This document shows, piece after piece, positions 18,389-35,536 of a stretch of 64,000 nucleotides of DNA (position 1 is the stretch's first letter; each line of letters opens with the position of its first letter). The notes under the pieces are model-generated. The model worked only from the letters and a program-made list of their open reading frames with translations, did no database searches and had not been told where the DNA came from. The translations under genes were made by a program, and so were the position numbers. Source of the DNA: a bacterium (GTDB taxonomy: Bacteria > Pseudomonadota > Alphaproteobacteria > Rs-D84 > CACZYB01); NCBI GenBank assembly GCA_014803575.1, contig JAAVBO010000022.1, positions 4,138 to 68,137 on the forward strand. Direction: 5' to 3'.

Positions 18389-18480
18389 AATTTTTTAATA
18401 CTTTTTTGATATTTTTTATTGAAGTATGCTTTTGAATGTGATATACTGAAATTGTCTTTTGTTAAATAGGAGAGAGAAAT

Positions 18481-18813
18481 ATGTTTAAAAGTATAATTAA
18501 AAAAGCTAAACCTGCTTCTAAAAAAGTTGAAGCAAAAAAGGCTCCTGCTAAAAAAGCAGTACCAGCTAAAAAAGTTGCAGTTAAAAAAACTACAACAACA
18601 ACTGCTAAAAAAGTTGTTGCAAAGAAACCTGTTGTAGCAAAGAAAGTAACTGTAAAAAAGGCTCCTGCTAAAAAAGTAGCACCAGCTAAAAAAGTTGCAG
18701 TTAAAAAAGCACCTGCTAAAAAAGTAGTTGTTAAAAAGGCTGCTGTAAAAACTGCTTCTGTAAAAAAATCAGTTAAACCAGTTGCAAAAAAAAAAGTAGC
18801 AAAAAAGAAGTAG
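18481..18813 (+). CDS. histone H1-like lysine/alanine-rich DNA-binding protein
   Basis: Tandem AKKAxPAKKVAVKK repeats; antisense ORF 18462..18914 is an artefact of the same repeats. Confidence 0.8.
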   Translation: MFKSIIKKAKPASKKVEAKKAPAKKAVPAKKVAVKKTTTTTAKKVVAKKPVVAKKVTVKKAPAKKVAPAKKVAVKKAPAKKVVVKKAAVKTASVKKSVKPVAKKKVAKKK

Positions 18814-18824
18814 TTGATATTTCT

Positions 18825-19382
18825 TTGATGGTATCTAATCCCAATAAAAAGGGTAATGAGGTTAAGAAAAAAACTTCGTTTATCTCTTCTTTGTTGGGAT
18901 TTTTTTATAACCATACAAAAAAAATATTGTCAGTTTATCTTGCTCTTGTCGTTGTATTTTCTTTCGCATTTGCTTTCATAAGAGAGTTGGATGTTTATAA
19001 GCAAATAAGATTTTCAACTAATCCTGTGGAAATTATGTTTATTTCTATTGCATATTCCATATTTGATATTATCAAATATTTTGTGCCGGTTCTTATTATT
19101 GCTTTGATTGTAAAGTATATTATGATGAAGGCGAGAAAGATAAAATTAAAATTTGTTTTTAAAAGAAGTTTCAAAAGACAAACAATGATTGCGTTTACAA
19201 TTTCATTTGTTTTTGCAATTATATTTTATTTTGATGTTTTATTGGTGACCAATTATTCTCGTCAATTAGTAGAATCATCATTAGAGTTATTTATTTTGTT
19301 CTTTTTATCTGTATTATTTACATTGTCTTCAATGTATGGTTTGTTAAAGGGAATTTCTCCTGTATTTGAACAAAAAAAATAA
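18825..19382 (+). CDS. membrane protein, hypothetical
   Basis: 4 TM segments. Confidence 0.45.
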   Translation: MMVSNPNKKGNEVKKKTSFISSLLGFFYNHTKKILSVYLALVVVFSFAFAFIRELDVYKQIRFSTNPVEIMFISIAYSIFDIIKYFVPVLIIALIVKYIMMKARKIKLKFVFKRSFKRQTMIAFTISFVFAIIFYFDVLLVTNYSRQLVESSLELFILFFLSVLFTLSSMYGLLKGISPVFEQKK

Positions 19383-19556
19383 TAAAATTAATTTTAATTA
19401 TACTTTGTAAGATTTAAAATCCGCCGGTTTGTGCGGATTTTTAATTTTGCAAATAATATGCAGATAAAGTTTCGGGATAACATTTCTTTATGCCCCGTTT
19501 GGGTGTGCCTTTATTTTAAAGGCATTTTTTTAATTTAAAAAAAAGGAGATATAAAT

Positions 19557-20393
19557 ATGTCAATTTCTATTGATCAATCTTTTATAAAACAGTTTGAAGC
19601 CGAAGTGCATCTTGCTTTTCAACAAACAGGAACAAAACTTCGTTCTACTGTCAGAACAAAAAATGATGTAAGAGGTAGTTCTACAACTTTCCAAAAAGTA
19701 GGTAAGGGAACTGCTACAACAAAAGCAAGACACGGTCTTGTGCCAGTTATGAATTTGGATCATACACCTGTTGAATGTGTATTATCAGATTACTATGCCG
19801 GTGATTGGGTTGATGAGTTAGACGAGCTTAAAACAAATGTTGATGAAAGACGTGTTGTTGCATCTGCCGGTGCGTATGCATTGGGTCGTAAAAGTGATGA
19901 GCTTATTATTTCAGAACTTAATCTTGCTTCACAATCTGTTGAAATGGGAACAACCGGTCTTACAAAGGCGAAAATCCTTTCTGCTTTGGAAATACTTAAT
20001 AATAATGATGTGCCAGATGATGGTCAAAGATTTGCTGTTGTCGGTGTGCATCAATGGAATGAACTTTTAAATATGAAAGAATTCTCAAATGCTGATTATG
20101 TCGGTGATTCTTATCCTTTATTAAACGGAACGGAATCAAGAAAATGGCTTGGTATTAATTGGATTATGCATAATGCTTTGCCTTTTGATGAAGATAATTC
20201 TTCAAGAGCTTGTTTTATCTATCACAAAAATGCAATAGGTCATGCATCAGGTTGTGATGTTAAAACTGATATTACATGGCATGGTGAAAGAGCTGCGCAC
20301 TTTATTTCTAATTGTATGAGTCAAGGTGCAAAGCTTATTGATAACAGCGGTATTGTTAAAATTATGTGTAAAGATACTTCTGTGATTGGTTAA
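19557..20393 (+). CDS. T7-like (gp10-like) major capsid protein
   Basis: FQKVGKG...VPVMNLDHTPVE...DERRVVASAGAYALGRKSDELIISELN resembles T7 gp10 FPVLGRTQAAYLAPGENLDD...DVRSEYTSQLGESLAMAADGAVLAEIAGL (from memory); strong RBS aaaaaggagat. Confidence 0.75.
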   Translation: MSISIDQSFIKQFEAEVHLAFQQTGTKLRSTVRTKNDVRGSSTTFQKVGKGTATTKARHGLVPVMNLDHTPVECVLSDYYAGDWVDELDELKTNVDERRVVASAGAYALGRKSDELIISELNLASQSVEMGTTGLTKAKILSALEILNNNDVPDDGQRFAVVGVHQWNELLNMKEFSNADYVGDSYPLLNGTESRKWLGINWIMHNALPFDEDNSSRACFIYHKNAIGHASGCDVKTDITWHGERAAHFISNCMSQGAKLIDNSGIVKIMCKDTSVIG

Positions 20394-20419
20394 TAATAAA
20401 CAAAAAAAAGGAAATAAAA

Positions 20420-20674
20420 ATGTCAATGGATTCAAAAAATTTATCAGTTCTTGCTTATTCTAACGGTTTTACTTTGTGGCATTATAAAACAGATGATGCG
20501 AAAACTGTTGTCGGAGCAAGCGGATATTTCAATAAAGTGTCGAATATATTTAATGTAGGAGATGTTATTTTTGCATCTCTTGGAAATACCTCAAAAGAAA
20601 TGGTAATGTATACAGTTTCTTCTGTGGAAAGTGGTGTTGTTAGTGTGTCTGATGTAATGCCAACAAGTGTTTAA
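20420..20674 (+). CDS. small phage-module protein, hypothetical
   Basis: Sits between capsid and tail tubular A; own RBS and terminator. Confidence 0.4.
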   Translation: MSMDSKNLSVLAYSNGFTLWHYKTDDAKTVVGASGYFNKVSNIFNVGDVIFASLGNTSKEMVMYTVSSVESGVVSVSDVMPTSV

Positions 20675-20694
20675 TTTTAGTAATTTGGAATAAA

Positions 20695-20723
20695 ATCCCT
20701 GTTTTCGGACGGGGATTTTTTTA
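20695..20723 (+). terminator. Rho-independent terminator
   Basis: ccctgttttcggacggg hairpin + T7. Confidence 0.5.
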
Positions 20724-20733
20724 TGGGAGAAAT

Positions 20734-21297
20734 TTGATGAATAATTTTACAATGGTGGATTTGTGTTCTAAGGCTTTGAATAAAATAGGAGCAAGTGAAA
20801 TAGTTTCTTTTGACGAAGGAACACCAGAGGCGGAATTTTCAAGAAGTATATATCCTGTATTAAAGCATAAGTTATTATCATCATTTCCATGGAGTTTTGC
20901 AACGGAAATTAAAAGGCTTAATAAGATTGTTATTGAAGATGTGGAAGCAGAATTTTCTAATTGTTATTTGCTTCCGTCTGATTTTATAAGGGCAGTGAAA
21001 ATTTCATCAAAACTTCCATATAAGATTATTGGGGATAAATTATTTACCGATGCGACAGGTGTTATACTTACTTATATATCTGATGTTGATGAATGTAGGT
21101 TTTCATCTGCTTTTGTATCGGCATTTATTTATGCTATTGCAGCAGAATTATCGGTTTCGCTTTTGGATGATGTGACTAAATTTAATTTATTATACCGACT
21201 TTATACTTCTGAATTAAGGGAAGCAAGATTTTTAGACAGTATGCAGGAAAGTCCAAAAAAGTTTAATGACTTTTCTTTGATTGATGTGAGGTTTTAA
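20734..21297 (+). CDS. T7 gp11-like tail tubular protein A
   Basis: Size (187 aa), position after capsid, N-terminal ...KALNKIGASEIVSFDEG...WSF... resembles gp11 ...NDILASIGEPPVSTLEGD...WTF. Confidence 0.65.
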   Translation: MMNNFTMVDLCSKALNKIGASEIVSFDEGTPEAEFSRSIYPVLKHKLLSSFPWSFATEIKRLNKIVIEDVEAEFSNCYLLPSDFIRAVKISSKLPYKIIGDKLFTDATGVILTYISDVDECRFSSAFVSAFIYAIAAELSVSLLDDVTKFNLLYRLYTSELREARFLDSMQESPKKFNDFSLIDVRF

Positions 21298-21304
21298 GAG
21301 AGGA

Positions 21305-23218
21305 GTGAATATGTATAAACAAGTGATTTCTAATACTAACTTTTCCTATGGTGAAATTTCCCCTTATTTATTTGGAAGAGGAGATATTGAGGCATATAAA
21401 TCCGGAGCAATGACTATTTCGAATATGACAGTTATTCCTACCGGCGGAATAAAAAGAAGAGATGGAACTAAGTTTATATCTCAGTTGTCGGGTGTAGGAA
21501 AATTGTTGGTTTTTGAATATTCTTCGGACAAAGTATTTCTTTTGTGTTTTACTGATAAAATATTGTATATTTATGATAGCGATAATAATTTGGTCGCATC
21601 TTTGTATTCTCCGTTTAGTTTGGAACAACTTTCTAATATAAGATGGTCACAGAAAGGTAATCTTCTTTTTATTGTGCATAAGGATATTTTTCCTAAGATT
21701 TTAAAATATATTCCGTCTGGCAATATTTGGAAGTTTGAAGATTGGGTGTTTGATAAAAATCCGGAAACCGGAGCTTCGTATCAGCCGTTTGCAAAATTTG
21801 ATGATACAGAAGAAATTTCTCTTACTCCATCAAATTTGACCGGAGAGATAGAGTTGGAAGCTTCGGACGAATTTTTTGATGTTTCTTATGTCGGAACAAA
21901 AATTAAAATAAATGGTGGTGAAGTTTTGATTACAGAGTTTATTTCTTTTGTGAAAGTTAAGGCTTTGGTTATTATTGAATTAGAAGGTACGGAAGCTTCT
22001 TATTTTTGGCAAGAACAGGCATTTTCTTGCAGGCGAGGTTATCCTAAAACTATTACATTTCATCAAAACAGATTGGTTATAGGGGCATCAAAATCTTTAC
22101 CTAATAGATTGTGGTTTTCCAAAACTGGAAATTATTTTAATTTTGATTTAGGTGAAGGTCTTGATGATGAAGCGATAGAGTTTGATATGTTATCGGATAA
22201 AGTTAATGAAATTGTTTGTGTGTTTTCAGGACGGCATTTGCAGGTTTTTACATCTGATTCCGAATGGATGGTTTCCGGATTGCCTTTGACACCATCATCA
22301 TTATCCGTAAAACAACAAACAAAAATCGGTTCTGTTTCGGATAGATTTATCTCTCCTAAATTAATAGAAGGTTCAACTGTATTTGTTGCAAAAAATAATA
22401 AGGAAATCAGAGAATTTTTCTATGGTGATATTACTGAAAATTATTCATCCGAAGATTTGATTTTACTTTCTAACCATTTGATGAATAAACCGAAAGAATT
22501 GGATTATGATATTAAAAAAAGATTGCTTTATGTTTTACAAAGTGACGGAACTGTTTCTGTTTTACTTTTGAATAAAACAAGTGGTATTAATGCTTGGTTT
22601 AAATATGAAACTTGCGGAGAATTTATTTCTTTGTGTGTATTTTTAAATAATTTATATGTTATTGTAAAACGTGAAAATGACTATTTTTTAGAAGTATTTA
22701 CGGAAGATATTTTTACTGATAGTTCGTTGGTATTTAAATCTAAAAATAAAACAAATAAAATAGTTGGAATTTCCCATTTGAATAATAAAGTTGTCAGTGT
22801 TAATGCCGATAATTATGTTTTTGATGTAAAAGTTTTAAATGGGGAAATTAATTTACCGATTGAGGCGGAAAATATTTTTATCGGACTTCCTTATACACAT
22901 ATTTTGTGTCCGTTACCATTTTTGATAGGTGGTGTTAGGGCGCCTAAGGTTGTTAGGTTGTTTGATTTGTCTTTTCGTGTTATGGATACACCTTTATTGC
23001 AAATAGATACCGGTGATGGTTTAAGAAATATTACCTGTCGTAATTTTGACAGGGAAGATAATATTGATAATCCAATAAAAATTTTTAGCGGGGATGTTCA
23101 TATAAAGGCAAAAGGTTTGTTAAGAAATTTTAATGTTCCGTTATGGAAACTTCAAAGTTCAAAACCTTATAATGTTAATATTTTAAATGTTTCTGCTACT
23201 GTTGGTAGCGTAAAATAA
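21305..23218 (+). CDS. T7 gp12-like tail tubular protein B
   Basis: QNRLVIGASKSLPNRLWFSKTGNYFNFDLGEGLDDEAIEF ~ T7 gp12 FRNRLGFLSGENIILSRTAKYFNFYPASIANLSDDDPIDV; follows gp11-like gene. Confidence 0.75.
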   Translation: MNMYKQVISNTNFSYGEISPYLFGRGDIEAYKSGAMTISNMTVIPTGGIKRRDGTKFISQLSGVGKLLVFEYSSDKVFLLCFTDKILYIYDSDNNLVASLYSPFSLEQLSNIRWSQKGNLLFIVHKDIFPKILKYIPSGNIWKFEDWVFDKNPETGASYQPFAKFDDTEEISLTPSNLTGEIELEASDEFFDVSYVGTKIKINGGEVLITEFISFVKVKALVIIELEGTEASYFWQEQAFSCRRGYPKTITFHQNRLVIGASKSLPNRLWFSKTGNYFNFDLGEGLDDEAIEFDMLSDKVNEIVCVFSGRHLQVFTSDSEWMVSGLPLTPSSLSVKQQTKIGSVSDRFISPKLIEGSTVFVAKNNKEIREFFYGDITENYSSEDLILLSNHLMNKPKELDYDIKKRLLYVLQSDGTVSVLLLNKTSGINAWFKYETCGEFISLCVFLNNLYVIVKRENDYFLEVFTEDIFTDSSLVFKSKNKTNKIVGISHLNNKVVSVNADNYVFDVKVLNGEINLPIEAENIFIGLPYTHILCPLPFLIGGVRAPKVVRLFDLSFRVMDTPLLQIDTGDGLRNITCRNFDREDNIDNPIKIFSGDVHIKAKGLLRNFNVPLWKLQSSKPYNVNILNVSATVGSVK

Positions 23219-23236
23219 TATTGAAAGGAGTTTTAA

Positions 23237-23707
23237 ATGGGTAATGTTGCTAATACTGTGAGTGCTGTGACATCGGCAGTTGGAGTTGTTGATAATATTG
23301 TTAGCTATAAAAACAATAAAGATAAACAAAAGGAAGAAAATAGAATATTAGAAGAAGAAAAGCGAATAAAAGAAGAGCAGATTGATGTAAAAAAACAACA
23401 ATATAAAGAAGAAAAAACAAATTTGTTGAAGGTGAAGCTTGCTTCTCAAAGGGCTAAATTGGGTGCTAACGGAATTAATGCAACTTCCGGCTCTTCTGTG
23501 GCATATCTTTCTAATTTAGAAAAGAATGTTGATGAAGAAATTGCAAAAAATGATTATTTCGCTGATTTGAATCTGCAAAATGAAAATAATATTTATAATT
23601 ATAAAAAGAAAGTTAATTTATTAAATTCATCAAAAAATAATTATAATGTTTTTTCTGATACTTTGAAGTCAACTACACAGCTTTTTTCTTCGTTATGGAA
23701 AATTTAA
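23237..23707 (+). CDS. coiled-coil phage-module protein (possible gp13-like internal/assembly protein)
   Basis: Position after gp12-like gene, size 156 aa, charged coiled-coil; no motif-level match. Confidence 0.3.
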   Translation: MGNVANTVSAVTSAVGVVDNIVSYKNNKDKQKEENRILEEEKRIKEEQIDVKKQQYKEEKTNLLKVKLASQRAKLGANGINATSGSSVAYLSNLEKNVDEEIAKNDYFADLNLQNENNIYNYKKKVNLLNSSKNNYNVFSDTLKSTTQLFSSLWKI

Positions 23708-23718
23708 AAGGGTAATTT

Positions 23719-24441
23719 ATGATGAATGATATTATTGAATATTCCTATATTTGTGATGGGAAACAAACTGTTTTTGAATATTTATTTGAAACTTTTTCTG
23801 TTCCATTTGTGAAAATTTATCTTGATGGAGAATTGATTGAAAAAGGTTTTACAGTTTATCCGTTTAATGATAAATGTGGTGGAAAGGTTGTGTTTGAATA
23901 TCCTCCATTAGCCGGTAAAAAATTAACTGTTTTAAGAGAATTGAATTTTTCCAGAGTTTGTGATTTTCAAACTGGCGGTGTTTTTAGGGCAGAGGATTTA
24001 AATTATGAAATGAATTATAATATTGCTTGTCTTAATCAGTTAGATAAAATATTGAAGAAATCTATAAAACTTTCCCGCTTTGATAACAAAGAAGTAAATC
24101 CTGTTTTGCCTCCGGCAAAGGCAGGTCATGCAATTGTATGGAACGAGAAGGGAAATGGATTTTCGAATTTAGATATTAATATAACCGAACAAGTAAACTT
24201 TGTTGAAGATTGCTTGAATTCGGTGGAAAATTTATATAATGATTTGACTGAGATTATTACAAACAGTCTTGATGTCGGTATTTTGGGACTTTTTCATAAT
24301 TTGTTGGGTCTTATCAGAGGATATCATCCCGATGCCTTTGAAGATTTTAAGTTAATTTCATCTGATTCGGATAAAATTTTTGATTATGGTTTGGTTAGTG
24401 ATACTCAAAACATTAATGTGAAAAATAATGGTAAATTGTAA
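23719..24441 (+). CDS. T7 gp17-like tail fibre, N-terminal adaptor domain only
   Basis: EYSYICDGKQTVFEYLFETFSVPFVKIYLDG ~ gp17 TYQLDGSNRDFNIPFEYLARKFVVVTLIG; FRAEDLNYEMN ~ LRAYDLNVAQI; 240 aa vs ~550 aa fibre, no distal domain. Confidence 0.55.
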   Translation: MMNDIIEYSYICDGKQTVFEYLFETFSVPFVKIYLDGELIEKGFTVYPFNDKCGGKVVFEYPPLAGKKLTVLRELNFSRVCDFQTGGVFRAEDLNYEMNYNIACLNQLDKILKKSIKLSRFDNKEVNPVLPPAKAGHAIVWNEKGNGFSNLDINITEQVNFVEDCLNSVENLYNDLTEIITNSLDVGILGLFHNLLGLIRGYHPDAFEDFKLISSDSDKIFDYGLVSDTQNINVKNNGKL

Positions 24442-25042
24442 AAAAAATACAAAAGTCAGTTTTTTAGAATTTTTGAAAATATGGTGTGATGTGCAAGGTA
24501 TTTCTTTGCCTTTGCACCATAAAAAAATTGCTCAGTGGTTGGAAGAGATTTTTTATTCTGATAAAAAAAAGGGGTTGTTATTAGCGTTCAGAAGTAGTGG
24601 GAAGTCTACTGTCGTTGGACTTTTTTGTTCATGGCTTTTGTATATTAACCCGAATGTCAGGATTTTGGTTTTGGCGGCGGATACGGTGCTTGCAAAAAAA
24701 ATGGTGCGAAATATAAAAAGGATAGTGGAGATTCATCCTATGTTAGAGGATATTAAACCCAAGAAAAAGCAAGAGTGGGCTTCGGGAAGTTTTACTGTGG
24801 AGCGAGATTTGGCACTTCGTGATCCATCTGTGATGGCGGTTGGACTTCTTTGCAATTCGACTGGAAGCAGGGCAGATGTTATTATTTGCGATGATGTGGA
24901 GGTGCCGAAGAACTGTGATACTTATCAAAAACGGTGTGATTTGAGGGAAAAATTATTGGAGTTGAATTTTATTTTGGTGCCTAATGGAATGCAGATTTTT
25001 ATAGGGACACCACATACTTTTGATACCATTTACAAGGTTTAA
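24428..25042 (+). CDS. T7 gp19-like large terminase, N-terminal ATPase half (stand-alone ORF)
   Basis: Walker A LAFRSSGKST, GSRADVIICDDVEVP ~ T7 GSRADIIIADDVEIP, IGTPHTFDTIYKV ~ LGTPQTEMTLYK; stops immediately after this motif. Confidence 0.8.
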   Translation: MVNCKKNTKVSFLEFLKIWCDVQGISLPLHHKKIAQWLEEIFYSDKKKGLLLAFRSSGKSTVVGLFCSWLLYINPNVRILVLAADTVLAKKMVRNIKRIVEIHPMLEDIKPKKKQEWASGSFTVERDLALRDPSVMAVGLLCNSTGSRADVIICDDVEVPKNCDTYQKRCDLREKLLELNFILVPNGMQIFIGTPHTFDTIYKV

Positions 25043-25096
25043 ACAGTTGATTTTTTGCCCTCTTTTATACAGAAAATATTTTTTTTCAAATAATTA

Positions 25097-25124
25097 TTGA
25101 CAAAGTAAAATATGTTTGTATAAT
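25097..25124 (+). promoter_or_regulatory. consensus sigma70 promoter (TTGACA-16-TATAAT) driving repeat array
   Basis: Perfect -35 and -10 hexamers seen in sequence. Confidence 0.6.
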
Positions 25125-25197
25125 GGAGGTAGTTTAGTTAGTTAAAAAAGAATTTGCCGGGACGACCCCTCATTTCGGCAAATCTGGTGAAAGCCAG

Positions 25198-25500
25198 TAA
25201 ATTCCCCTAAGTCATTCCCTCCTTATTTTCTCTCTCCTCGACTTAGGGGATAAATTTTTACCGAGAATTCCGAGTAATCTCACAAAGGCGAACTAAAATT
25301 TTCTACTAACCCCGTAGAAAATTAAGTTCTTGTTTGTTCGGTTTCTCTCTCCTCGACTTAGGGGATAAATTTTTACCGAGAATTCCGAGTATAGCAAACC
25401 AGATATCCTAAACTTCTCGCTAAAACCGCTCGTCGTTAAGGATAACTTCGTTTGCTATTCTCTCTTCTCGACTTAGGGGATAAATTTTTATTGATATTTC
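25198..25500 (+). repeat. tandem array: 48-nt direct repeat x3 (third degenerate) with 66-67-nt structured spacers
   Basis: tctctctcctcgacttaggggataaatttttaccgagaattccgagta at 25229-25276, 25344-25391, degenerate at 25459-~25494; first repeat closes an 11-bp stem with 25203-25213 around a CT-rich loop. Confidence 0.8.
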
Positions 25501-25555
25501 TATCTTTATTTAATATTATTTGTAATAATTTAATACAAATAAGAAAGGTGAAAAA

Positions 25556-26215
25556 ATGAAACTCAGCACAGTTGAAAAAATCTATATTATTGAATTTTTG
25601 GGTAGGTATGTTTTGCCTGAATATATGCCTCAAGATTTAAAAAAACAAAGAAGACTCATAACTATGCAGGATGATCTTTCCGGAATTATTAAAGAAAAAA
25701 CCAAAGATAAAAATGAAATAAAGAGAATGATAAAAACTTATATTGAAGACTCTTTACGCTTTTATGTTGAAAGTTTTAATATATCAATGGAAGAGGTGTA
25801 TAATATAGATATAGATGGTGTATTTCCTTCTACTGAAAAAAACATTGTATCAGTAGAAAAAAGTGATTTAGGCAGATATGAAGTTTCAAGACATTTTGGT
25901 GTTATAACAACTGATGAAATAAAGGCTACTTATATTGGTGGCGCAGGAAACTTTTTATATAATGGTAAAAGGGGTATTAGTATTCCAAATTATGTATTTG
26001 ATGATATTAAGGAAGGAAAGAATAATAAATATTTTAAACTATATAATACGGAAGTATATAATCCACCTTATTATAGTCAACATTATTTAGTTGAACCATA
26101 TCGTATACCAAATAATGGATATGTTGAGTTGCCGATAGAGCCTATTCCTTATGATAAAAATTTTGTTGATAGGGAAGTTAATTTAATTTATAAAGCTCGT
26201 GAAAATCAAAGATAG
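25556..26215 (+). CDS. hypothetical protein (219 aa)
   Basis: RBS aaggtg; no recognisable motif; own terminator. Confidence 0.5.
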   Translation: MKLSTVEKIYIIEFLGRYVLPEYMPQDLKKQRRLITMQDDLSGIIKEKTKDKNEIKRMIKTYIEDSLRFYVESFNISMEEVYNIDIDGVFPSTEKNIVSVEKSDLGRYEVSRHFGVITTDEIKATYIGGAGNFLYNGKRGISIPNYVFDDIKEGKNNKYFKLYNTEVYNPPYYSQHYLVEPYRIPNNGYVELPIEPIPYDKNFVDREVNLIYKARENQR

Positions 26216-26221
26216 TAAAAT

Positions 26222-26246
26222 TCCCCTTGGTTTTAGGGGATTTTTT
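26222..26246 (+). terminator. Rho-independent terminator
   Basis: tcccc-ttggtttt-agggga hairpin + T6. Confidence 0.6.
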
Positions 26247-26575
26247 ATGGGAGATTAATTTTTTTGATTTTTTATTTGAAATTTTTGTTTTAAATTGCTA
26301 AAAATAAAACTGTATTTTAAAAGATTTGCGAATCGGTTTAATTTTTTTATAAAAAAGAATCGATTCTTTTGTGTTTTTTAAGATTTTATTGTTTAGACAA
26401 TCTAATTTTTAAAAAGAATCTTTAAAATTTTAATATGTTGTTTTTACAGCATTATTTTCTATTTTTGTGTACTTTAAAAGTTGTCAAAAAAAGAATCGCT
26501 TGACTTTTTTTGTCGAATGTTTTAAGAATCGTTGTATGAAGCGAATAGAAATTGTTTCTGTGAAACTTCAAACCT

Positions 26576-26818
26576 ATTCCCTGTTGCGTTCCTTTTCTCT
26601 CCTTTCCTCCTTCTCTCCTCGCAACGGGGAATTTTTTTGTGCTGATGGAATATTACGGACAGATAGCCTTCGTTAATGTCTAACTTACAGTTTTTTGGTG
26701 GAGATTTTGTGTCGGGTGGGCGTTGACCCAAACAAGCAATCCTAAGCTTCTCACTAATATCGTTCGTCGCTAAGGATAGCTGGGTTTGTGTTCTCCTCGC
26801 AACGGGGAATTTTTTTTG
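26576..26818 (+). repeat. paralogous structured-repeat array (two units) with long terminator-like hairpin
   Basis: 13-bp stem attccctgttgcg/cgcaacggggaat around 31-nt CT-rich loop + T7 (26576-26638); second unit 26732-26818 homologous to spacer-2/repeat-3 of first array. Confidence 0.75.
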
Positions 26819-27028
26819 TGCCTATGGGTATTGCTGACAGAGAGCTTTTAGATAGTAAAAATATTTATAAAGATTTATAAAAGTAGGTCCATATGTGCCC
26901 GCCCCAAGGGGGATAGACCAAAGAGTATCGGCTTTGATGACTGATGAAGGTGTGAAATTCAAAATAATCCTTGAAAGTTTTCTGTGTTTCAGTTTATACT
27001 TCAAAATATAAAAAACGAAAGGTCTATT

Positions 27029-27805
27029 ATGAATAATGTAAATGCGAATACCAATACTGAAAAAGAAGAAATTAAATATTTGACCCTTGATGATATAGAT
27101 AAAATGTATGAAGAGGCGGAACCTGCGGATTGGGGTTTCCCAGAGAACTATAGTGCTGTAGCTTCTAATAGATATCAAAATTTAACAACTTATGTAAAAC
27201 TTACTAAAATAGAGATAGAACGATTACCTGCTGATCATGCTAAGCTTCTTTTAGATTTTTATAATTTGTTTGATGAAAATGAACCTTATAAAGATAAGGA
27301 AGGTACTCCATATAGGGATAATTTATTAAATGATTTATATTATAATATATATGATGACGATTATGCACCTCTGTTTTCATCATCTAATGGAAAAAAAATC
27401 TATAGACACGATATTAAGTATGTAGAAAAGAACTGGAATAATCGTGTTGTAAAGGTTACTAAAATAGGAACAGAAGAAATACCAGTATTAGATAAAAATC
27501 AAAAGATAGAGAAATTGAAAAAATCCTTTGATATATTCAAAAGATTAAAAGAAAGGGATTTAGTTCTTGCCAGTATGTATGATAGAATAGTTAAGGAGGG
27601 GAGGGACTACTTGACATACCATGATTATCTTGGAAATTTTAATACACATTGTATGCTATTAGACGAAGGACGTTTACTTGATTATATAAGATATTTTTTT
27701 GCTAAAGCTAATTGGCGTGGTGCTTTATTTATACAGAACAAATTTCCAAATGTAAAAGTCACGGAAAATATGATGGCACAGTATTTGGAATATAAAGGAA
27801 GGTAA
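27029..27805 (+). CDS. hypothetical protein (258 aa)
   Basis: ATG 27029 with RBS gaaagg preferred over GTG 26984 of ORF track; no recognisable motif. Confidence 0.5.
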   Translation: MNNVNANTNTEKEEIKYLTLDDIDKMYEEAEPADWGFPENYSAVASNRYQNLTTYVKLTKIEIERLPADHAKLLLDFYNLFDENEPYKDKEGTPYRDNLLNDLYYNIYDDDYAPLFSSSNGKKIYRHDIKYVEKNWNNRVVKVTKIGTEEIPVLDKNQKIEKLKKSFDIFKRLKERDLVLASMYDRIVKEGRDYLTYHDYLGNFNTHCMLLDEGRLLDYIRYFFAKANWRGALFIQNKFPNVKVTENMMAQYLEYKGR

Positions 27806-27811
27806 TAAAAT

Positions 27812-27836
27812 CCCCTCTTTTGAGGGGTTGTTTTTT
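27812..27836 (+). terminator. Rho-independent terminator
   Basis: cccctc-tttt-gagggg hairpin + T-run. Confidence 0.55.
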
Positions 27837-27838
27837 AT

Positions 27839-28795
27839 ATGATATTTATGTATAATAATACTATGAATGAAGAGTATTTTAATATTGCCGGTTTTACAAA
27901 GTATCCAACGAATATATATAATTCGGAGCCGGAGAATGGTTATGCTCAAGGGGTGAATGAATGTAAGATTCCGGAGGCCTTGGTTTATTATGGCTTAGAT
28001 TCTGATACCCAATTTATGAAGTTATTTAATCCTGTATGGTATAGTGTTTTGAAGAGTTGTAAATTGCAGGCTGTTGTTTATAGTATATCAAATTATTTAT
28101 TTGATAACAGTCTTTCTCCTTTGTGGAATAAGTTTGAAAGAAATGTTGTTGATATGTTGCCGGCTGTGATAATTCTTTGCGGTTGGCAAAGGCATATTGA
28201 AAATATGAAAAAGAAAAAATTTGATATAACTCAGATTGAATTTAACAGGCAAGAGATACGAAATACTTTGACAAAGGGTATGCGAGTTTATGGGAAATCC
28301 GGTATGCTTATATCCGGAATGATATGGGCGAGTATATTATTGAATGCGAATCTTGTACAGTTAGGATGTTTACAATATGAAATAAAGAAAGCAAATAATC
28401 AATATGTGTGTGATGAAATATCTATTGGAGATATGATTGTTGCGATACATATTCCTGCCGGAGCTTTGTTTACTCCTGATGCAGTAGAGAAATCCATTAC
28501 AATGGCAAAGGAGTATTTTGGAGATAAGGTTTCGTTTATATGTAATTCTTGGTTATTGGGTGAACAGTTGGGTACTTGTCTAAAATCTGACAGTAATATT
28601 TTTAATTTTCGAAGGTATTTTAGTATAATTAAAACGGAAGATTCTGAATCTGTTTATAATTTTTTATTTAATAATGCGGATGATAATCCTAATATATCTG
28701 ATTTAGCGGAGGGAACATCTTTGCAAAAGTCAGTTAAAAAGGCTATGTTATCAGGTATTCATTTTTATGATGCGATTGGGATTTTGAAATGTTAA
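27839..28795 (+). CDS. hypothetical protein (318 aa)
   Basis: No recognisable motif; start uncertain. Confidence 0.45.
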   Translation: MIFMYNNTMNEEYFNIAGFTKYPTNIYNSEPENGYAQGVNECKIPEALVYYGLDSDTQFMKLFNPVWYSVLKSCKLQAVVYSISNYLFDNSLSPLWNKFERNVVDMLPAVIILCGWQRHIENMKKKKFDITQIEFNRQEIRNTLTKGMRVYGKSGMLISGMIWASILLNANLVQLGCLQYEIKKANNQYVCDEISIGDMIVAIHIPAGALFTPDAVEKSITMAKEYFGDKVSFICNSWLLGEQLGTCLKSDSNIFNFRRYFSIIKTEDSESVYNFLFNNADDNPNISDLAEGTSLQKSVKKAMLSGIHFYDAIGILKC

Positions 28796-28908
28796 GACTT
28801 ATATTTGGTTTAGATATAAAATAGGAGGCCGAAAAATATTTCTTTTTGCTTAAAATAAAAAAAAAGGTTGCCTTTTTGTAAAATATAGGTTATAAATCTA
28901 TCATCTTT

Positions 28909-28984
28909 GGCTAGGTAGCTCAGTCGGTAGAGCAAAGGACTGAAAATCCTTGTGTCGGCGGTTCGATTCCGCCCCTCGCCACCA
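28909..28984 (+). tRNA. tRNA-Phe (GAA)
   Basis: Cloverleaf by hand: anticodon loop cuGAAaa, T-arm ggcgg/ttcgatt/ccgcc, encoded CCA. Confidence 0.85.
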
Positions 28985-28995
28985 TAAAAGGTCAG

Positions 28996-29018
28996 ACTCT
29001 CGTTTTCGGGAGTTTTTT
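28996..29018 (+). terminator. terminator after tRNA-Phe
   Basis: actctcg-tttt-cgggagt hairpin + T6. Confidence 0.55.
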
Positions 29019-29020
29019 AT

Positions 29021-29246
29021 TTGTGTGTCGGCGGTTCGATTGTCCTCGGGCTTTGCCCTCGTTCGTCCCGTAAGGCTCAACTTCGGACTTTGTCCTCGTT
29101 TTGCCAACTATCGACTCGTCCTCGGGCTTTGCCCTCGTTCGTCCCGTAAGCTTAAAGCATCGCCTTTGGCTCGCGTTTAAGCAACTATCGACTCCCGCCC
29201 CTCGCCACCATAAAAGGTTGAACTCCCTATTTTGGGAGTTTTTTTA
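29021..29246 (+). other. second copy of tRNA-Phe 3' end (att-like direct repeat) split by a 153-bp GC-rich insert, followed by duplicated terminator
   Basis: gtgtcggcggttcgatt (29024-29041) ... ccgcccctcgccaccataaaagg (29195-29217) match the tRNA 3' end; insert 29042-29194 = two 76-nt units each starting with tcctcgggctttgccctcgttcgtcccgtaag and ending aactatcgactc. Confidence 0.7.
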
Positions 29247-29341
29247 TGTTTAAAGTTTTTTTTCTTAAAAATTTTCTTTATCTCTTAACATTTTGCTTTT
29301 TTTATGGTATAATGTCGGGGAATAAAGTAAGGAGAGATATT

Positions 29342-30958
29342 ATGATAGGAGAAGGAAACTTCGGCTATAATTCACAAAATGATGATGATATTCAAAATTT
29401 TATTCCACGAATCACCGTAATGGGAGTTGGTGGTGCCGGTTGTAATGCCGTGGGAAATATGATTTCTCAGGGTATTGACGGTGTTGATTTTGTTGTTGCA
29501 AATACAGATGCTCAGTCTTTGATGCAATCAAAAGCATCAAGGAAAATCCAACTTGGAAAGCAAACAACTCGCGGTTTTGGTGCCGGTTCTCGTCCGGAAG
29601 TAGGGCAAAGTGCGGCGGAAGAATCCTTAAATGAAATTACTGATGTTATTAAAAACTCTAATATATTATTTTTAACTGGCGGTATGGGTGGCGGAACTGG
29701 TAGTGGTGCTATGCCCGTGATTGCCTCGGTTGCAAAGGAAAAGGGGATTTTAACGGTTGCAATTATTACTACACCTTTTGATTTTGAAGGGGAAAAGAAA
29801 AAGCGTATTGCAAAAGAGGCTATTTCCAAACTTATCCCTAATGTGGATTGTGTAATAACACTTCCTAATCAGAATTTATTTAAGGTTGCGGATAAGCAAA
29901 TGTCGTTTATGAATGCCTTTAAGTTATCTGATAATGTCCTTTATGAAGGGGTTAGAAATATTACAGATTTAATTATGAAACCTGGACTTATTAACCTTGA
30001 TTTTGCCGATATAAGGGCGGTTATGGAAGGACAAGGTAAGACAATAATCGGGACTTCTGTTCAAAGTGGTGAAAATAGGGCTTTAAAGGCGGTGGAAGGT
30101 GCTCTTCTTAATCCTCTGCTTTCTAATGAAAGTATAAGTGGAGCAAAGGGTATTCTTGTAAATATTACCGGTAATGCGTCAAATCTTTCCTTGGAAGAAG
30201 TTGGGGAGATTATGAATACCATTAGAGCCGGAATAAATTCAGAAGATACGAATTTTGTATTTGGAACTTGCTTTGATGATTCTATGGGTGACAGTTTGAA
30301 AGTTGCAATTATTGCAACCGGAATTGATGGTGCAAACGTATCGCAAAAGCCGGTCCTCAGCAGTTTTGATAGTTTTACATCTGAGGTTGTAAAACCTACA
30401 CCTTATTCATTTGAGGAAGAAAAGAAAGTTGAAATTAAAATGGAAGAACCTGTTATCAAAGAAGATAATTTGAAAGTTAAACAGGAACCGATTGTAAATA
30501 CTGATAAACTTGATAGTTTTTTTGAAACCGGTGATGAAAAGGATATTCAAAGTTTTATTGATGAGGAAGCAGAAAAGCTTAACATTGCAAGTAATGTAAC
30601 AAATGAACTTTTTGCCGATAAATCAGATAAAATTTCATCTTCTGATGATGATGGTGATGATAATCCGGAACCACCAAAGGGAAAAAAGAAAAATCCTTTG
30701 TCATCATTTTTTGATATGATTGGAGAAAAAGGTAATGATGATACTTTCTTTGAAGATGTTGATTTGGGAAAGGATGATGATATTACTTTTAAGAAAGAAG
30801 AGCAAATTTCCGATAAAAAGGAAGAAGATAATGTCGTTTTTTTAGCAGGTAGTCTTGATACTAAAAATCAAGAGGATAAGCAAATTGATTTGATGGAAAT
30901 GATTAAAAAAATGGAGGAAACTTTGGAAATACCTGCAATATTTAAAAAAGGTTCTTAA
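29342..30958 (+). CDS. ftsZ: cell division GTPase FtsZ (long acidic C-terminal linker)
   Basis: GVGGAGCNAV, GGGTGSG tubulin signature; ATG 29342 with RBS aggagag preferred over ORF-track start 29246. Confidence 0.9.
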   Translation: MIGEGNFGYNSQNDDDIQNFIPRITVMGVGGAGCNAVGNMISQGIDGVDFVVANTDAQSLMQSKASRKIQLGKQTTRGFGAGSRPEVGQSAAEESLNEITDVIKNSNILFLTGGMGGGTGSGAMPVIASVAKEKGILTVAIITTPFDFEGEKKKRIAKEAISKLIPNVDCVITLPNQNLFKVADKQMSFMNAFKLSDNVLYEGVRNITDLIMKPGLINLDFADIRAVMEGQGKTIIGTSVQSGENRALKAVEGALLNPLLSNESISGAKGILVNITGNASNLSLEEVGEIMNTIRAGINSEDTNFVFGTCFDDSMGDSLKVAIIATGIDGANVSQKPVLSSFDSFTSEVVKPTPYSFEEEKKVEIKMEEPVIKEDNLKVKQEPIVNTDKLDSFFETGDEKDIQSFIDEEAEKLNIASNVTNELFADKSDKISSSDDDGDDNPEPPKGKKKNPLSSFFDMIGEKGNDDTFFEDVDLGKDDDITFKKEEQISDKKEEDNVVFLAGSLDTKNQEDKQIDLMEMIKKMEETLEIPAIFKKGS

Positions 30959-30979
30959 AAGTTTATTTTTGCTGTTTGT

Positions 30980-31010
30980 CCCTTTGATTTTTTTCAAAGG
31001 GATTTTTTTT
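30980..31010 (+). terminator. Rho-independent terminator after ftsZ
   Basis: ccctttga-tttttt-tcaaaggg hairpin + T8. Confidence 0.6.
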
Positions 31011-31033
31011 ATTTATAAATAAAGGAGTGAAAT

Positions 31034-32530
31034 ATGATAGAAACAAATATTACAGATAAAAATATGATAGACGGTATTTACGAAAGGTATATTAATGCCT
31101 TGGAAAAACGTGCCGTTTGGGAAAATTATTGGGAGGAATGTTATGAATATGCTTTGCCACAAAAAAGCGGGATTTTCAAAAATGATAATGGCAGTGTGAA
31201 AAAAAATTCGACTGTTTTTGATTCAACTGCGGAATCTGCAGTAGACAGACTTGCCAGTAGTCTTCTTTCTCAACTTACACCGCCTTGGTCAAAATGGTTC
31301 GGGCTTGAATTTGGAATTGATATAAGTGATGATGAGGAAAGGTCGGAAAAGGTTCTTCAACTTGAAAATATTGAAAAAATTTTGCAATCGCATTTTGACA
31401 GGTCTAATTTTTATGTGGAGGCACATCAATGCTATCTTGATTTGATAACTGTCGGAACGGCGGTTATGTTATTTGAAGAAAATGCGGTCGGTGAAAATTC
31501 TGCGTTTAAATTTACGGCCGTGCCTATGAATGAAATTGTTTTTGAAGATAGCGGAAATGGAAAATTGGATAGTGTGTTTAGGCGTTCTAATGTTTCTCTT
31601 TCCAATTTGAAATCAAGGTTTGTAAATAGTGTTTTTGATGAAAGACAACAAGATATTATTTCAAAAAATTCTGATAAAAAAGTTTATGTGATTGAGGTGG
31701 TAGTTCCTCGTATTACCTCAACCGGACAACAAGGATATAATTACTTTGCGTTTGTGGATGATGTTGATGGAATATTTGGCAGTGATGAAAGAATTGTCCT
31801 TAAAACCGGAGTATTTGCAAATTCTCCGTTTATTTGTTTCAGATGGCAGAAGGTAAGTTCCGAAATATATGGAAGATCGCCCGTGATGAAGGCACTTCCC
31901 GATATTAAAACTGCAAACAAGGTTGTAGAGCTTATCCTTAAAAATGCGTCTATTGCGGTAAGCGGTATTTGGCAGGCGGATGATGACGGGATTCTAAATC
32001 CTCAGAATATTACTCTTGCCCCCGGAACTATTATACCAAAGGCAGTTGGATCTGCCGGACTTACACCTATCAGAAGCGGTGCTGATTTTGATGTGTCGCA
32101 ACTTGTTCTTTCTGATTTAAGGGCCAATATCAACAGGTGCTTATTGGTGGATCAATTGACTGCTTCGTCCGGTGGTAAAATGACTGCTACGGAAGTGATA
32201 GAGCGAATAAATCAGATATCCCGTATTTTGGGTGCGACTTATGGCAGATTGCAATCGGAGTTTTTGACTCCTGTCATTATTCGTGCGGTTAGCATTTTGA
32301 AGCGTCGCGGGGAAATTTCTGATATAATGGTGAATGGGTATGAAGTTGATTTGAAGTATCAATCTCCACTTGCGCAAAATCAGATAGTTCGCGATGCCGA
32401 AAATGTTTTAAATTGGATAAAAACTTTGGCTGAATTTGGTGAAGATGCAATGAGTATTATTGATAAAAAGGCTGTCGCATTATGGCTTGGTAAAGTTTTT
32501 GGTGTGTCTGAAAAATTGATTATATCTTAG
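31034..32530 (+). CDS. T7 gp8-like portal (head-to-tail connector) protein
   Basis: EIYGRSPV ~ T7 gp8 ESYGRSYI; GGKMTATEVIERINQISRILGATYGRLQSEFLTPV ~ GERVTAEEIRYVASELEDTLGGVYSILSQELQLPL (from memory). Confidence 0.75.
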   Translation: MIETNITDKNMIDGIYERYINALEKRAVWENYWEECYEYALPQKSGIFKNDNGSVKKNSTVFDSTAESAVDRLASSLLSQLTPPWSKWFGLEFGIDISDDEERSEKVLQLENIEKILQSHFDRSNFYVEAHQCYLDLITVGTAVMLFEENAVGENSAFKFTAVPMNEIVFEDSGNGKLDSVFRRSNVSLSNLKSRFVNSVFDERQQDIISKNSDKKVYVIEVVVPRITSTGQQGYNYFAFVDDVDGIFGSDERIVLKTGVFANSPFICFRWQKVSSEIYGRSPVMKALPDIKTANKVVELILKNASIAVSGIWQADDDGILNPQNITLAPGTIIPKAVGSAGLTPIRSGADFDVSQLVLSDLRANINRCLLVDQLTASSGGKMTATEVIERINQISRILGATYGRLQSEFLTPVIIRAVSILKRRGEISDIMVNGYEVDLKYQSPLAQNQIVRDAENVLNWIKTLAEFGEDAMSIIDKKAVALWLGKVFGVSEKLIIS

Positions 32531-32545
32531 TTTAAAGAGGTTATT

Positions 32546-33427
32546 ATGGAAGAAGATTTGAGTAAGCCTTTTTTGGTCGGGTTTGATGTCCTTAAAATAC
32601 CTGTGATTGAAAATGGAAAACCTACTTGGGAAGAAAAGTTTCCGATTCAAAAAATAGAGGAGCTTAAGGCACGAGTTGGAATTAAAAAATTTTCTTCCCA
32701 AATGATGTTGATGCCTATTGATACAAATAAGGGTAGGTTCGATGTAAAAAAATTAAAATTTTATTCATCAGAACTTCTTATGGAAGAAAGAAACAGGCTT
32801 CTTAATTTTTCAATTAATGGGAATAAGGTTGTAAGTTGTTCTTGTTGGTGGGATCCGTCCTATGGGTCAAGAGGTGGTGACGGAAGTGTAATTTCTGTTG
32901 TTTTTATTGATGAAGTGGGGCGATATTATCTTCATGATGTAAAGTATTTATATCATTCTGATGGGAATGCAGAGGAAATTCAGTCTGCGGTTGACCAATG
33001 TAGGCAAGTGGGCGAATTTTTGCGGGAAAATCATATACCTTCTGTGTATGTGGAAAGTAATGGCATAGGCAAATTTTTGCCGGGGTTTTTAAGAGGAGAG
33101 CTTTCAAAAATGGGGGTAAATGCTACTGTTATTGAAAAAACATCCAGAATTTCAAAGAATTTGAGGATTTTAGATGCGTTTGATGTGATTATTTCCGCTG
33201 GGTATCTTTTTGTGAATGAAAAGGTTAAAGATACGCCTTGGATTGCAGAATTTTGTGATTGGGGTGTGGATACAAAATCGCATGATGACGGGCTTGACAG
33301 TGTTGCGGGGGCTATTTCTTCGCAACCGGTCAGACTTCCTTTGACTTTGTTTTCCGGTTTAAAGGGCAGGTATAGTTTGGCCGGAAAAACCTTTAAAATA
33401 AAGACTAATTTTGATATAGATTTTTAA
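32546..33427 (+). CDS. T7 gp19-like large terminase, C-terminal nuclease half (stand-alone ORF)
   Basis: FSSQMMLMP ~ FTLQFMLNP; WWDPSYGSRGGDGSVISVV ~ VIDPSGRGKDETGYAVLYT; HDDGLDSVAGAIS ~ HDDRLDALALGIE; own RBS aagagg 15 bp after portal stop. Confidence 0.8.
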   Translation: MEEDLSKPFLVGFDVLKIPVIENGKPTWEEKFPIQKIEELKARVGIKKFSSQMMLMPIDTNKGRFDVKKLKFYSSELLMEERNRLLNFSINGNKVVSCSCWWDPSYGSRGGDGSVISVVFIDEVGRYYLHDVKYLYHSDGNAEEIQSAVDQCRQVGEFLRENHIPSVYVESNGIGKFLPGFLRGELSKMGVNATVIEKTSRISKNLRILDAFDVIISAGYLFVNEKVKDTPWIAEFCDWGVDTKSHDDGLDSVAGAISSQPVRLPLTLFSGLKGRYSLAGKTFKIKTNFDIDF

Positions 33428-34223: not shown

Positions 34224-34463
34224 ATGGATGAAAATTTAGATGTATTATTAAAAGATAATAAAGAATATTTTGATAACATAGAGGTGGATTTTGTAAGAAC
34301 CTTTAATAGCCAGAGCGGTAAGAAGGTTTTGAAATATCTTATACTTTTAAGTCTTGGTAGATATTTGCCACCGAATGCGACTAATGAAGAACTTCATTAT
34401 TTAGAAGGGGAACGTTTTCTTGTATCCTTTATTTTAAATATGATAAAGAAGGGTAAGAATTAA
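34224..34463 (+). CDS. small hypothetical protein (79 aa)
   Basis: RBS aaggagg; no motif. Confidence 0.35.
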   Translation: MDENLDVLLKDNKEYFDNIEVDFVRTFNSQSGKKVLKYLILLSLGRYLPPNATNEELHYLEGERFLVSFILNMIKKGKN

Positions 34464-35323
34464 TTTTTGTTATTTATATTTTTAAGTGGTATGTTGATAG
34501 TATTTAATACTGTTAATAATTCGTTTTTGGCGGCGATGTGTGAAAGGGTGATTTCTTCTTTGCCTATTTCCATAAGGTCAAGTATTGTTAATCCCTTTAA
34601 AAACATTTCTCTGTATACTACTCGTTCGCCAATTCCCGATATGTAATTAAATCCTATTTGTTGTTGAAGCAGTCTTAGTATTTGGTCTACTTCACGTTTG
34701 TTTTTTGCATCAATGTGTGAAATTCTGTTTCTTAATACTATCCAACGGAGTTCAGGTTTACCAAGTTCTGCTCTTTTTTGTTGGATAAATCTTATATTGT
34801 TGGTGTATTGTGATTCTGATATAATGTTTTTTGTGTATGGATCTATGTTTGCGATTACATCAATATCTACTAAACTATCATTTACAGGAGTGATTAGTAT
34901 ATCTGCGTTTTTATGTCCGGCGGTTGAAAGATGATTGTATGTTCCGGGGGTATCAATTATGATTATATCGTATTCTTTTTTTAAATCCTTTATTTCTGCA
35001 TCAAGTTGTTGTTCGTCCTCGGAAGAGCTTTTTTTATTTGAAAATTGTGATGGAGTGACGACCAAATGTTCAGGCATAGGAAGAGTTATATGGTTATCGT
35101 TTGCATAACGAATTCTGTTTTCTATGTAATGGGTAAGGGTGCCTTGACGACCATCTAAATCTATGGTTGCAACCTTGTATCCTGCATATAGGTAGGCAAC
35201 TGCCAAATGTATTGACATAGTAGATTTTCCACTGCCTCCCTTTTCGTTTCCAACGACTATTACATACGAATTATCGCTCATTTCCTTTTCTCCGTTTGAT
35301 ATTATACTATTTTTTTTAGTCAA
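34460..35323 (-). CDS. ParA/MinD-family P-loop ATPase (MipZ-like)
   Basis: Deviant Walker [14 protein letters not shown]; size ~287 aa and sequence pattern like alphaproteobacterial MipZ. Confidence 0.65.
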
Positions 35324-35384
35324 AATAAAGAGATTTTATTAATTTTTTTGCAATTTTTGTTTTTTGTGTATATACTTTTTGTAT

Positions 35385-35461
35385 GCACCCATAGCTCAGC
35401 TGAATAGAGCGTTGGTTTCCGGAGCCAAAGGTCAGAGGTTTGAATCCTCTTGGGTGCACCA
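35385..35461 (+). tRNA. tRNA-Arg (CCG)
   Basis: Acceptor gcaccca/tgggtgc, anticodon loop uuCCGga, T-loop ttgaatc, encoded CCA. Confidence 0.8.
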
Positions 35462-35536
35462 AATAAATTGTTTGCAATATATAGGAAAATTTATTATAAT
35501 TTTATTTAGGATTAACAAATCAAGGAGTTTTTTATT

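Follow-up and report, generated by a model that had tools for sequence, protein, structure and literature searches.

We examined two short repeat arrays, taken here as candidate genes for small non-coding RNAs (sRNAs), in a 64,000-nt stretch of a low-GC (about 31%) bacterial chromosome (contig JAAVBO010000022.1 of GenBank assembly GCA_014803575.1, positions 4,138 to 68,137; hereafter, the window), which also carries TIM, RecJ, YidC, PNPase, MutS, MutL and FtsZ. Array 1 (25198-25500) contains a 50-nt repeat three times with a 115-nt period (25227-25276, 25342-25391 and 25457-25506; identity 100, 100 and 78%), and array 2 (26576-26818) contains the 25-nt repeat TCTCCTCGCAACGGGGAATTTTTTT in two exact copies 178 nt apart (26614-26638 and 26792-26816). 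Neither repeat would be expected by chance, as 100 shuffles gave 0 matches. Downstream of each array lies an open reading frame (ORF), ORF1 (25556-26215, 219 amino acids) and ORF2 (27029-27805, 258 amino acids), respectively. These ORFs, like the promoters, RNAs, extension units and terminator after ORF1 described below, are on the plus strand.

Two arrays and the RNA genes predicted within them

The first hairpin of array 2 (26576-26632) is formed by the arms AUUCCCUGUUGCG and CGCAACGGGGAAU, whose 13 base pairs, one of them G-U, enclose a 31-nt loop consisting of pyrimidines only. Seven T follow, the first of which is also the last paired base. With a minimum free energy of -19.4 kcal/mol, this hairpin is far more stable than shuffled sequences (z = -7.3). 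Its counterpart in array 1 (25203-25250) has 11 pairs, a 26-nt loop and a subsequent U run (z = -4.9 vs shuffles). The likeness between the arrays extends further: spacer 2 of array 1 (25395-25454) and unit 2 of array 2 (26729-26788) align over 60 nt with 80% identity, and the inner stems ATCCTAAAC/GTTAAGGAT and ATCCTAAGC/GCTAAGGAT have a common A.A mismatch and differ by one compensatory A-U to G-C change. Array 2 folded as a whole is not significantly better than shuffles (z = -1.4); only the individual hairpins are. Each array possesses a single 5′ arm and two to three 3′ arms, such that the repeated part comprises nothing but the 3′ arm, the CU stretch preceding it and the U run. We thus recovered every feature of the original prediction, a reading of the bare sequence that had proposed two diverged copies of one structured RNA; its claim of paralogy is borne out by the shared 60-nt unit, the common mismatch with its compensatory change, and the paralogous terminator hairpins.

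Array 1 is preceded by a sigma-70 promoter, P1 (25097-25124), made up of TTGACA, a 16-nt spacing and TATAAT, the latter preceded by TGn as in an extended -10 element. P1 scores 12/12 in our promoter scan and is conserved at equal distance in all orthologues with upstream sequence; it is near-consensus and probably constitutive. The predicted transcript, sRNA-1, would have a core of about 129 nt (25131-25259, the 5′ end being placed from the promoter; fold z = -3.45) comprising two hairpins, HP1 (25152-25183) and HP2 (25184-25197), and the terminator hairpin 25203-25250 with its CU-rich 26-nt loop (25214-25239) and U tail. In all relatives, sRNA-1 starts about 55-90 nt past the stop codon of an N-terminal terminase fragment.

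The second RNA, sRNA-2, has a promoter of its own, P2 (26500-26529; sigma-70-type, TTGACT, 18 nt, (T)AAGAAT), which is flanked and overlapped by AAGAATCG boxes. These belong to a candidate regulatory region (26330-26531) rich in AAGAATCG and GANTC boxes, including the palindrome AAGAATCGATTCTT. This region has the highest GANTC density of the window, with six sites in 250 nt where the mean is about 0.5, and it holds four of the window's seven AAGAATC sites, those of the palindrome included. The boxes are kept in all relatives, even in a contig of 49% GC (L024; related loci are referred to by L numbers), and P2, which sits among them, is probably regulated. GANTC is the site methylated by CcrM in Alphaproteobacteria. 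The sRNA-2 core, with a likewise predicted 5′ end, would span about 103 nt (26536-26638; fold z = -4.9) and consist of a 5′ hairpin (26537-26570) and the terminator hairpin 26576-26632, whose pure-pyrimidine loop occupies 26589-26619 and is followed by the U tail.

Relatives, covariation and the flanking ORFs

For comparison, we assembled about 20 related loci from gut and rumen metagenome-assembled genomes (MAGs) and metagenomes. A scan of 185,579 species representatives, one genome each, with a pattern that fixes only the loop end, the G run and the U tract returned true relatives in eight low-GC MAGs, mostly labelled uncultured Alphaproteobacteria and of gut or rumen origin; the other nine matches were unrelated terminators. 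A metagenome scan using 21 nt of the array-2 loop as its pattern added eight further loci, including L024, and a look-up of ORF2 homologues contributed the near-identical strain L044 as well as an unrelated locus, L043. The motif is confined to this one locus in the window, and the pattern scan likewise found a single locus in each of the eight related species. A dispersed palindromic element of the repetitive extragenic palindrome (REP/BIME) type, whose presence genome-wide would have undermined the original prediction, was rejected on these grounds. In several relatives (L014, L026/L030/L035 and L037) an inversion has left the two genes convergent instead of tandem, and both genes persist. 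Rfam returned nothing relevant for 24900-27100, whether at the gathering threshold or at E <= 10, and no match was found in phage records, plasmid records or viral contigs, the last probed with three DNA patterns and the ORF1 protein.

Alignment of the orthologues gave strong support for the structures. Among 13 distinct sRNA-2 orthologues, 95.7% of cells are paired and 7 of 25 pairs show compensatory changes; for sRNA-1 (10 distinct orthologues), the figures are 98.6% and 5 of 28. In 500 column shuffles, the observed pairing or covariation score was never reached for either RNA, and sliding one partner by 1-3 columns lowered pairing to 27-60%. That the arrays encode a structured RNA under selection, as originally proposed, is therefore well supported. 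While the stems covary in both RNAs, the 26- to 31-nt pyrimidine loops stay fixed: the sRNA-2 loop is identical at each of its 31 positions in all 15 loci, and in sRNA-1 every loop position is invariant except for the length of a UC repeat. At the same loci, the neighbouring proteins are only 55-88% identical, and the stems and 5′ parts of the RNAs have diverged as well. For L024, part of the loop invariance was built into the search pattern. However, the same loops are seen in copies that were found by adjacency and not by their own loop pattern (sRNA-1 of L005, L012, L014, L026, L036 and L037; sRNA-2 of L010, L016 and L017), so that ascertainment alone does not account for it.

Two details of loops and stems may be added. 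The count of UC dinucleotides at 25230-25239 is the sole interspecies variation in the sRNA-1 loop (CUCUCUCCUC vs CUCUCUCUCCUC) and looks like slippage tolerated in an otherwise invariant sequence. In L024 (3800-4330), the same 31-nt loop sits on a stem core of GUA/UAC instead of GCG/CGC, the upstream region is GANTC-rich, and a second copy of the 3′ arm follows after a different spacer.

The relatives also bear on the ORFs, which the original prediction had joined to the arrays as a duplicated module of RNA array plus ORF, possibly an attenuator or an antitoxin. An ORF does follow each array in the window. Yet in four relatives (L005, L010, L012 and L016) neither of the two RNAs, both present, is followed by an ORF; in L017, an ORF2 homologue stands behind array 1 instead of array 2; and in L043 a 69%-identical ORF2 homologue resides among unrelated genes without any RNA element. 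Searches for ORF1 led to no strains beyond the same or near-identical ones (L001 and L044), and among 5.8 billion proteins the homologues of ORF2 make up no more than six clusters. Neither protein had a match in Pfam, PHROG, PADLOC, NCBIfam or PDB sequence searches, and an exact-sequence look-up of ORF2 found nothing. With the ORFs absent, swapped or elsewhere without the RNA, the module is unsupported, and so are the attenuator and antitoxin roles derived from it; each RNA, moreover, has its own conserved promoter, and array 2 is without its second unit in L044, a strain otherwise almost the same as the window. On this comparative evidence, we consider the ORFs to be interchangeable cargo and not partners of the RNAs, and they would represent unrelated genes inserted at a recombination-prone spot.

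These data allow two rival explanations to be weighed. If the arrays were cis-acting leaders or attenuators, their successive terminators would control how much transcription continues into ORF1 and ORF2, an idea that fits the same-strand position of each array upstream of an ORF and the fact that one 5′ arm could pair alternatively with several 3′ arms. The irregular occurrence of the ORFs argues against it, as do the promoter-like sites that ORF1 and ORF2 themselves possess and the convergent tRNA that is the next gene in L010 and L012. The comparative data thus largely refute a leader function, which we hold to be very improbable. A related proposal, sRNA-2 as leader of the downstream tRNA-Phe and ftsZ, was rejected since this tRNA gene is equipped with a promoter-like site and lies in the opposite orientation in L010 and L012. 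We also rejected a put-like antiterminator, the simplest relatives having nothing downstream to antiterminate into.

Even less probable, to the point of being hardly credible, is a type I or III RNA antitoxin with ORF1 and ORF2 as the toxins. A repeated RNA upstream of an ORF without assigned function is what one sees in type III (ToxI-like) toxin-antitoxin arrays. Unlike in ToxIN, however, the units here are not short, identical tandem repeats but measure 115-179 nt and contain different inner hairpins; neither a ToxN-like protein nor a match to ToxN/AbiE-type or other defence families was found; and the ORFs are dispensable, their linkage to the RNAs not being conserved.

The pyrimidine-rich loops and their possible partners

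Each RNA would be transcribed from its own sigma-70-type promoter and end at an intrinsic terminator, which itself displays a large invariant C/U-rich loop on a covarying stem. The tracts exposed in these loops, CCUCCUU and CUCUCUCCUC, complement Shine-Dalgarno (SD) regions. They would act as anti-SD seeds, pairing in trans with purine-rich ribosome-binding regions of target mRNAs and repressing their translation. Both genes exhibit what is generally expected of a trans-acting sRNA gene, namely, an own promoter, an intrinsic terminator and a conserved structure independent of the neighbours, and both RNAs are kept where the ORFs are absent. We put the probability that the arrays are two paralogous "sibling" sRNA genes, likely acting in trans via CU-rich anti-SD-like seeds, at roughly 0.55.

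As for potential targets, several genes in the window carry a perfect 9- to 12-nt complement to a loop at a distance of 0-11 nt ahead of the start codon, e.g., those at 18468, 2712, 34213 and 29329. As judged by duplex energy, translation-initiation regions are better pairing partners for the loops than the interiors of coding sequences (p about 1e-5 and 1e-4). The anti-SD mechanism and action in trans through the loops are inferred from such complementarity and from analogy with the CcsR/cuckoo and LhrC RNAs described below.

One of these sites deserves a description of its own. The small ORF at 18468-18813, located between the scaffold and capsid genes, has a below-cut-off NCBIfam match to histone H1-like proteins, and its ribosome-binding region AGGAGAGAGAAA is perfectly complementary to the sRNA-1 loop over 12 nt, more than any other site in the window apart from the sRNA-1 locus. 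A DicF-like targeting of the ftsZ start was dropped; the 9-nt SD-type match there (29329) is no better than that of many genes, and the idea is further weakened by ftsZ not being adjacent in L010, L012 and L014.

Several observations weigh against the sibling sRNA interpretation. Composition-matched shuffled loops pair almost equally well with initiation regions (median -7.6 vs -8.2 kcal/mol); therefore, the anti-SD character is generic, and no specific target has been identified. The invariance of the full 26- to 31-nt loop exceeds what an ordinary seed of 6-12 nt would need and hints at a longer or different partner, be it a protein, rRNA or several targets. Transcripts with the ends given above are themselves predicted from the DNA sequence. 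In the window's first sRNA-1 terminator, UAAA sits between the stem and the U tract; this terminator is possibly leaky as a result. Finally, we did not find recognisable promoters in the extension units that follow the cores, which would therefore be made by read-through.

The loop invariance beyond the need of a seed leads us to retain, as the main rival, a protein- or ribosome-binding role in which the loops serve as decoys that sequester or recruit a pyrimidine-binding factor (e.g., ribosomal protein S1, Rho or Hfq) without pairing to mRNA. It would accommodate both the preservation of all 31 loop positions over 15 loci, the GC-49% lineage among them, and a complementarity no more specific than composition gives. 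We nevertheless regard such a role as rather unlikely: no candidate binding protein is linked to the locus, part of the L024 invariance is imposed by the search pattern, and the known sibling sRNAs with CU-rich loops are base-pairing regulators (PMC8034643, PMC4132741).

The closest of these precedents are the CcsR, or cuckoo, RNAs, tandem homologous sRNAs of Alphaproteobacteria whose hairpin loops contain an anti-SD motif with CCUCC and whose loci duplicate and rearrange (PMC8034643). Our RNAs resemble this group (ar14 in Rfam) in their alphaproteobacterial host, the presence of several homologous sRNAs at one locus, the anti-SD loop motif and the rearranging loci. They differ in that CCUCCUCCC, found in the loop of each of the two cuckoo hairpins, is missing from loops that read CAUUCCCUCCUUAUUUUCUCUCUCCUC and UUCCUUUUCUCUCCUUUCCUCCUUCUCUCCU, and in that the ar14 covariance model gives no match in 24900-27100 at the gathering threshold or at E <= 10. 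Nor is there an adjacent DUF1127 gene as in the CIN1 subgroup, the ORFs being without Pfam match and the upstream gene being a terminase fragment. The motif here is part of a 26- to 31-nt terminator loop, and the extra units share the 3′ arm only.

Another parallel is offered by the multicopy sRNAs LhrC1-5 of Listeria monocytogenes, whose CU-rich sites are redundant, include one in the terminator loop and bind the SD region of targets (PMC4132741). Sibling sRNAs with CU-rich sites that include the terminator loop are common to both systems. The Listeria RNAs come from another phylum, however, and have no sequence or Rfam similarity to ours, whose loops are far longer and invariant and whose function is predicted. 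Like any intrinsic (Rho-independent) terminator, the hairpins described here have a G+C-containing stem followed by a U run, but ordinary terminators carry unconserved loops of 3-8 nt, whereas here the loop is the most conserved part.

3′ extension units and the T7-like surroundings

Beyond the cores, the "repeat + spacer" units would be optional 3′ extension modules, each combining a hairpin of type A or B with a CU stretch and a re-used terminator 3′ arm. They would have arisen by duplication or insertion at the terminator and would be transcribed only via read-through, giving rise to longer isoforms or to processed extra sRNAs. Array 1 has two of them. Unit 1a (25260-25374; z = -4.2) contains a long type-A hairpin, a CU stretch, the reiterated 3′ arm and a U tail. 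Its apical loop is UAACCCC, and 11 of its 33 pairs show compensatory changes between two lineages. Unit 1b (25375-25489) has the same layout with a long type-B hairpin (apical loop UAAAACC). In array 2, unit 2a (26639-26817) consists of a leader, a type-B hairpin (about 26724-26795) and the second 3′ arm with its U tail (26792-26816). The type-B hairpin, common to both arrays, has the general apical loop UAAnAnC and compensatory changes in 11 of 21 pairs. R1, a covariance model of the type-B unit, scores 100 bits on unit 1b and 93 bits on unit 2a; both in the window and in relatives its matches are restricted to units of the locus, with a weak one at 26160-26248, around the terminator after ORF1. 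Depending on the lineage, there are zero to two units per gene. Unit 1a is found in L011, L016, L017, L044 and L008 and absent from L010 and L012; L010 is devoid of any unit, and L012 lacks one after sRNA-1.

The repeat-spacer layout brings other systems to mind. We rejected a clustered regularly interspaced short palindromic repeat (CRISPR) array since what would be its "spacers" recur from genome to genome as conserved hairpins that covary. In the ORFs around the locus, Pfam scans revealed neither cas nor reverse-transcriptase domains, the lack of the latter leading us to reject retrons and diversity-generating retroelements (DGRs), and PADLOC gave no match for ORF1, ORF2 and two neighbouring ORFs.

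How the arrays came to have one 5′ arm and two or three 3′ arms could be explained if they were scars of repeated insertion at sRNA 3′ ends, with cargo integrating at, and duplicating, the 3′ arm of the terminator. Integrative elements are known to insert at the 3′ ends of tRNA genes, duplicating them. The region past ORF1 fits this picture: a terminator follows at 26222-26240, and its 3′ half plus the downstream flank correspond to the native sRNA-1 3′ arm and flank of relatives without the ORF (26218-26310 vs L010 and L017; the stretch 26222-26310 matches the flank of the ORF-less L010). Furthermore, the window and L017 hold different cargo between the same flanks, the final units are truncated in L012 and L014, and the neighbouring tRNA-Phe has reiterated 3′ fragments. 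On the other hand, Pfam scans detected no integrase or transposase in the window, the identical tandem units of L005 and L012 would fit plain tandem duplication equally, a process that accounts for some of the pattern, and the covariation of the hairpin modules argues that they are selected and not mere scars. We regard repeated insertion as a possible, if tentative, account of the repeats, one that is compatible with the core genes being sRNA genes.

The tRNA-Phe gene (28909-28984) has peculiarities of its own. Behind it lies a partial copy of its 3′ part (29027-29210), which is followed by a terminator of its own and whose T-loop is split by two inserts in tandem, each about 85 nt long (GTCCTCGGGCTTTGCCCTCGTTCGTCCCGTAAG...CAACTATCGAC), and two such partial units are present in L016 (2640-2990). 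A marginal motif (TCGTTCGTC..TAAGG..AACTTCG) is common to these inserts and the type-B hairpins; the type-B covariance model did not match the inserts, and the local alignment is marginal, 4-9 of 500 shuffles being as good.

Both RNA genes are embedded in a T7-like gene set (17648-33427), which comprises genes for scaffold (17648), capsid (19557), tail tubular protein A (20734), nozzle (21305), internal virion protein (23237), a fibre N-domain (23719) and portal (31034). The gene for the terminase large subunit is split: ORF 24428-25042 corresponds to positions 1-189 of the 500-position T7-type model and ORF 32546-33427 to positions 232-500, and the halves are separated by sRNA-1, sRNA-2, the cargo, tRNA-Phe, ftsZ and the portal gene. 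The T7-like gene order is kept across several MAG species at 55-88% protein identity. This conserved order and the lack of an integrase suggest that the cluster is vertically inherited, possibly as a domesticated element akin to a gene transfer agent (GTA).

Might the RNAs, then, be a component or dedicated regulator of the T7-like particle genes, either a packaging RNA or a regulator of a domesticated GTA-like element? The constant position of sRNA-1 just past the terminase N-fragment in all relatives and the synteny of the whole cluster across species would agree with this. Against it, the sRNA-2-like gene of L024 has no T7-like gene within 6 kb, nothing similar exists in the viral contigs or phage records that we searched, and T7-type packaging is not, to our knowledge, known to need an RNA. 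With L024 lacking such neighbours, we assign a functional tie to the cluster a low probability and consider it quite improbable. A broader version, which we also think unlikely, if somewhat less so, would treat the sRNA 3′ ends, like those of tRNAs, as reusable insertion sites for small structured-RNA modules and gene cassettes within a vertically inherited, domesticated T7-like cluster with a terminase split precisely at the start of sRNA-1, the RNAs and their loops being functional parts of that element, in regulation or packaging, and not ordinary housekeeping sRNAs.

Just past the T7-like cluster, around 34460-36127, we noted a ParA-like ATPase gene on the minus strand, a tRNA-Arg (35385-35461) and a two-HTH (helix-turn-helix) regulator of the XRE type (36377-37375); these may be a remnant of another element or a regulator of the cluster. 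Farther downstream, ARAGORN called a 92-nt tRNA-Asp with anticodon ATC (50142-50233) that the Rfam tRNA model did not, probably a false positive or an unusual tRNA-like sequence.

While sibling sRNAs are already known as a general kind, the family described here is new and stands out by the unusual architecture of its terminator loops and by a 3′ extension that is modular and variable. It would constitute a previously uncatalogued sRNA family of uncultured low-GC gut and rumen Alphaproteobacteria, in which conservation is highest in the terminator's own 26- to 31-nt pyrimidine loop. For organisms that are not yet culturable, the family supplies a ready covariance model and testable seed sequences. 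In addition, the locus flags a hotspot at which RNA modules and cargo genes turn over, situated within a conserved cluster of T7-like structural genes that may be a domesticated phage, and the importance of the family would rise if the link to that cluster or the insertion-site idea were true.

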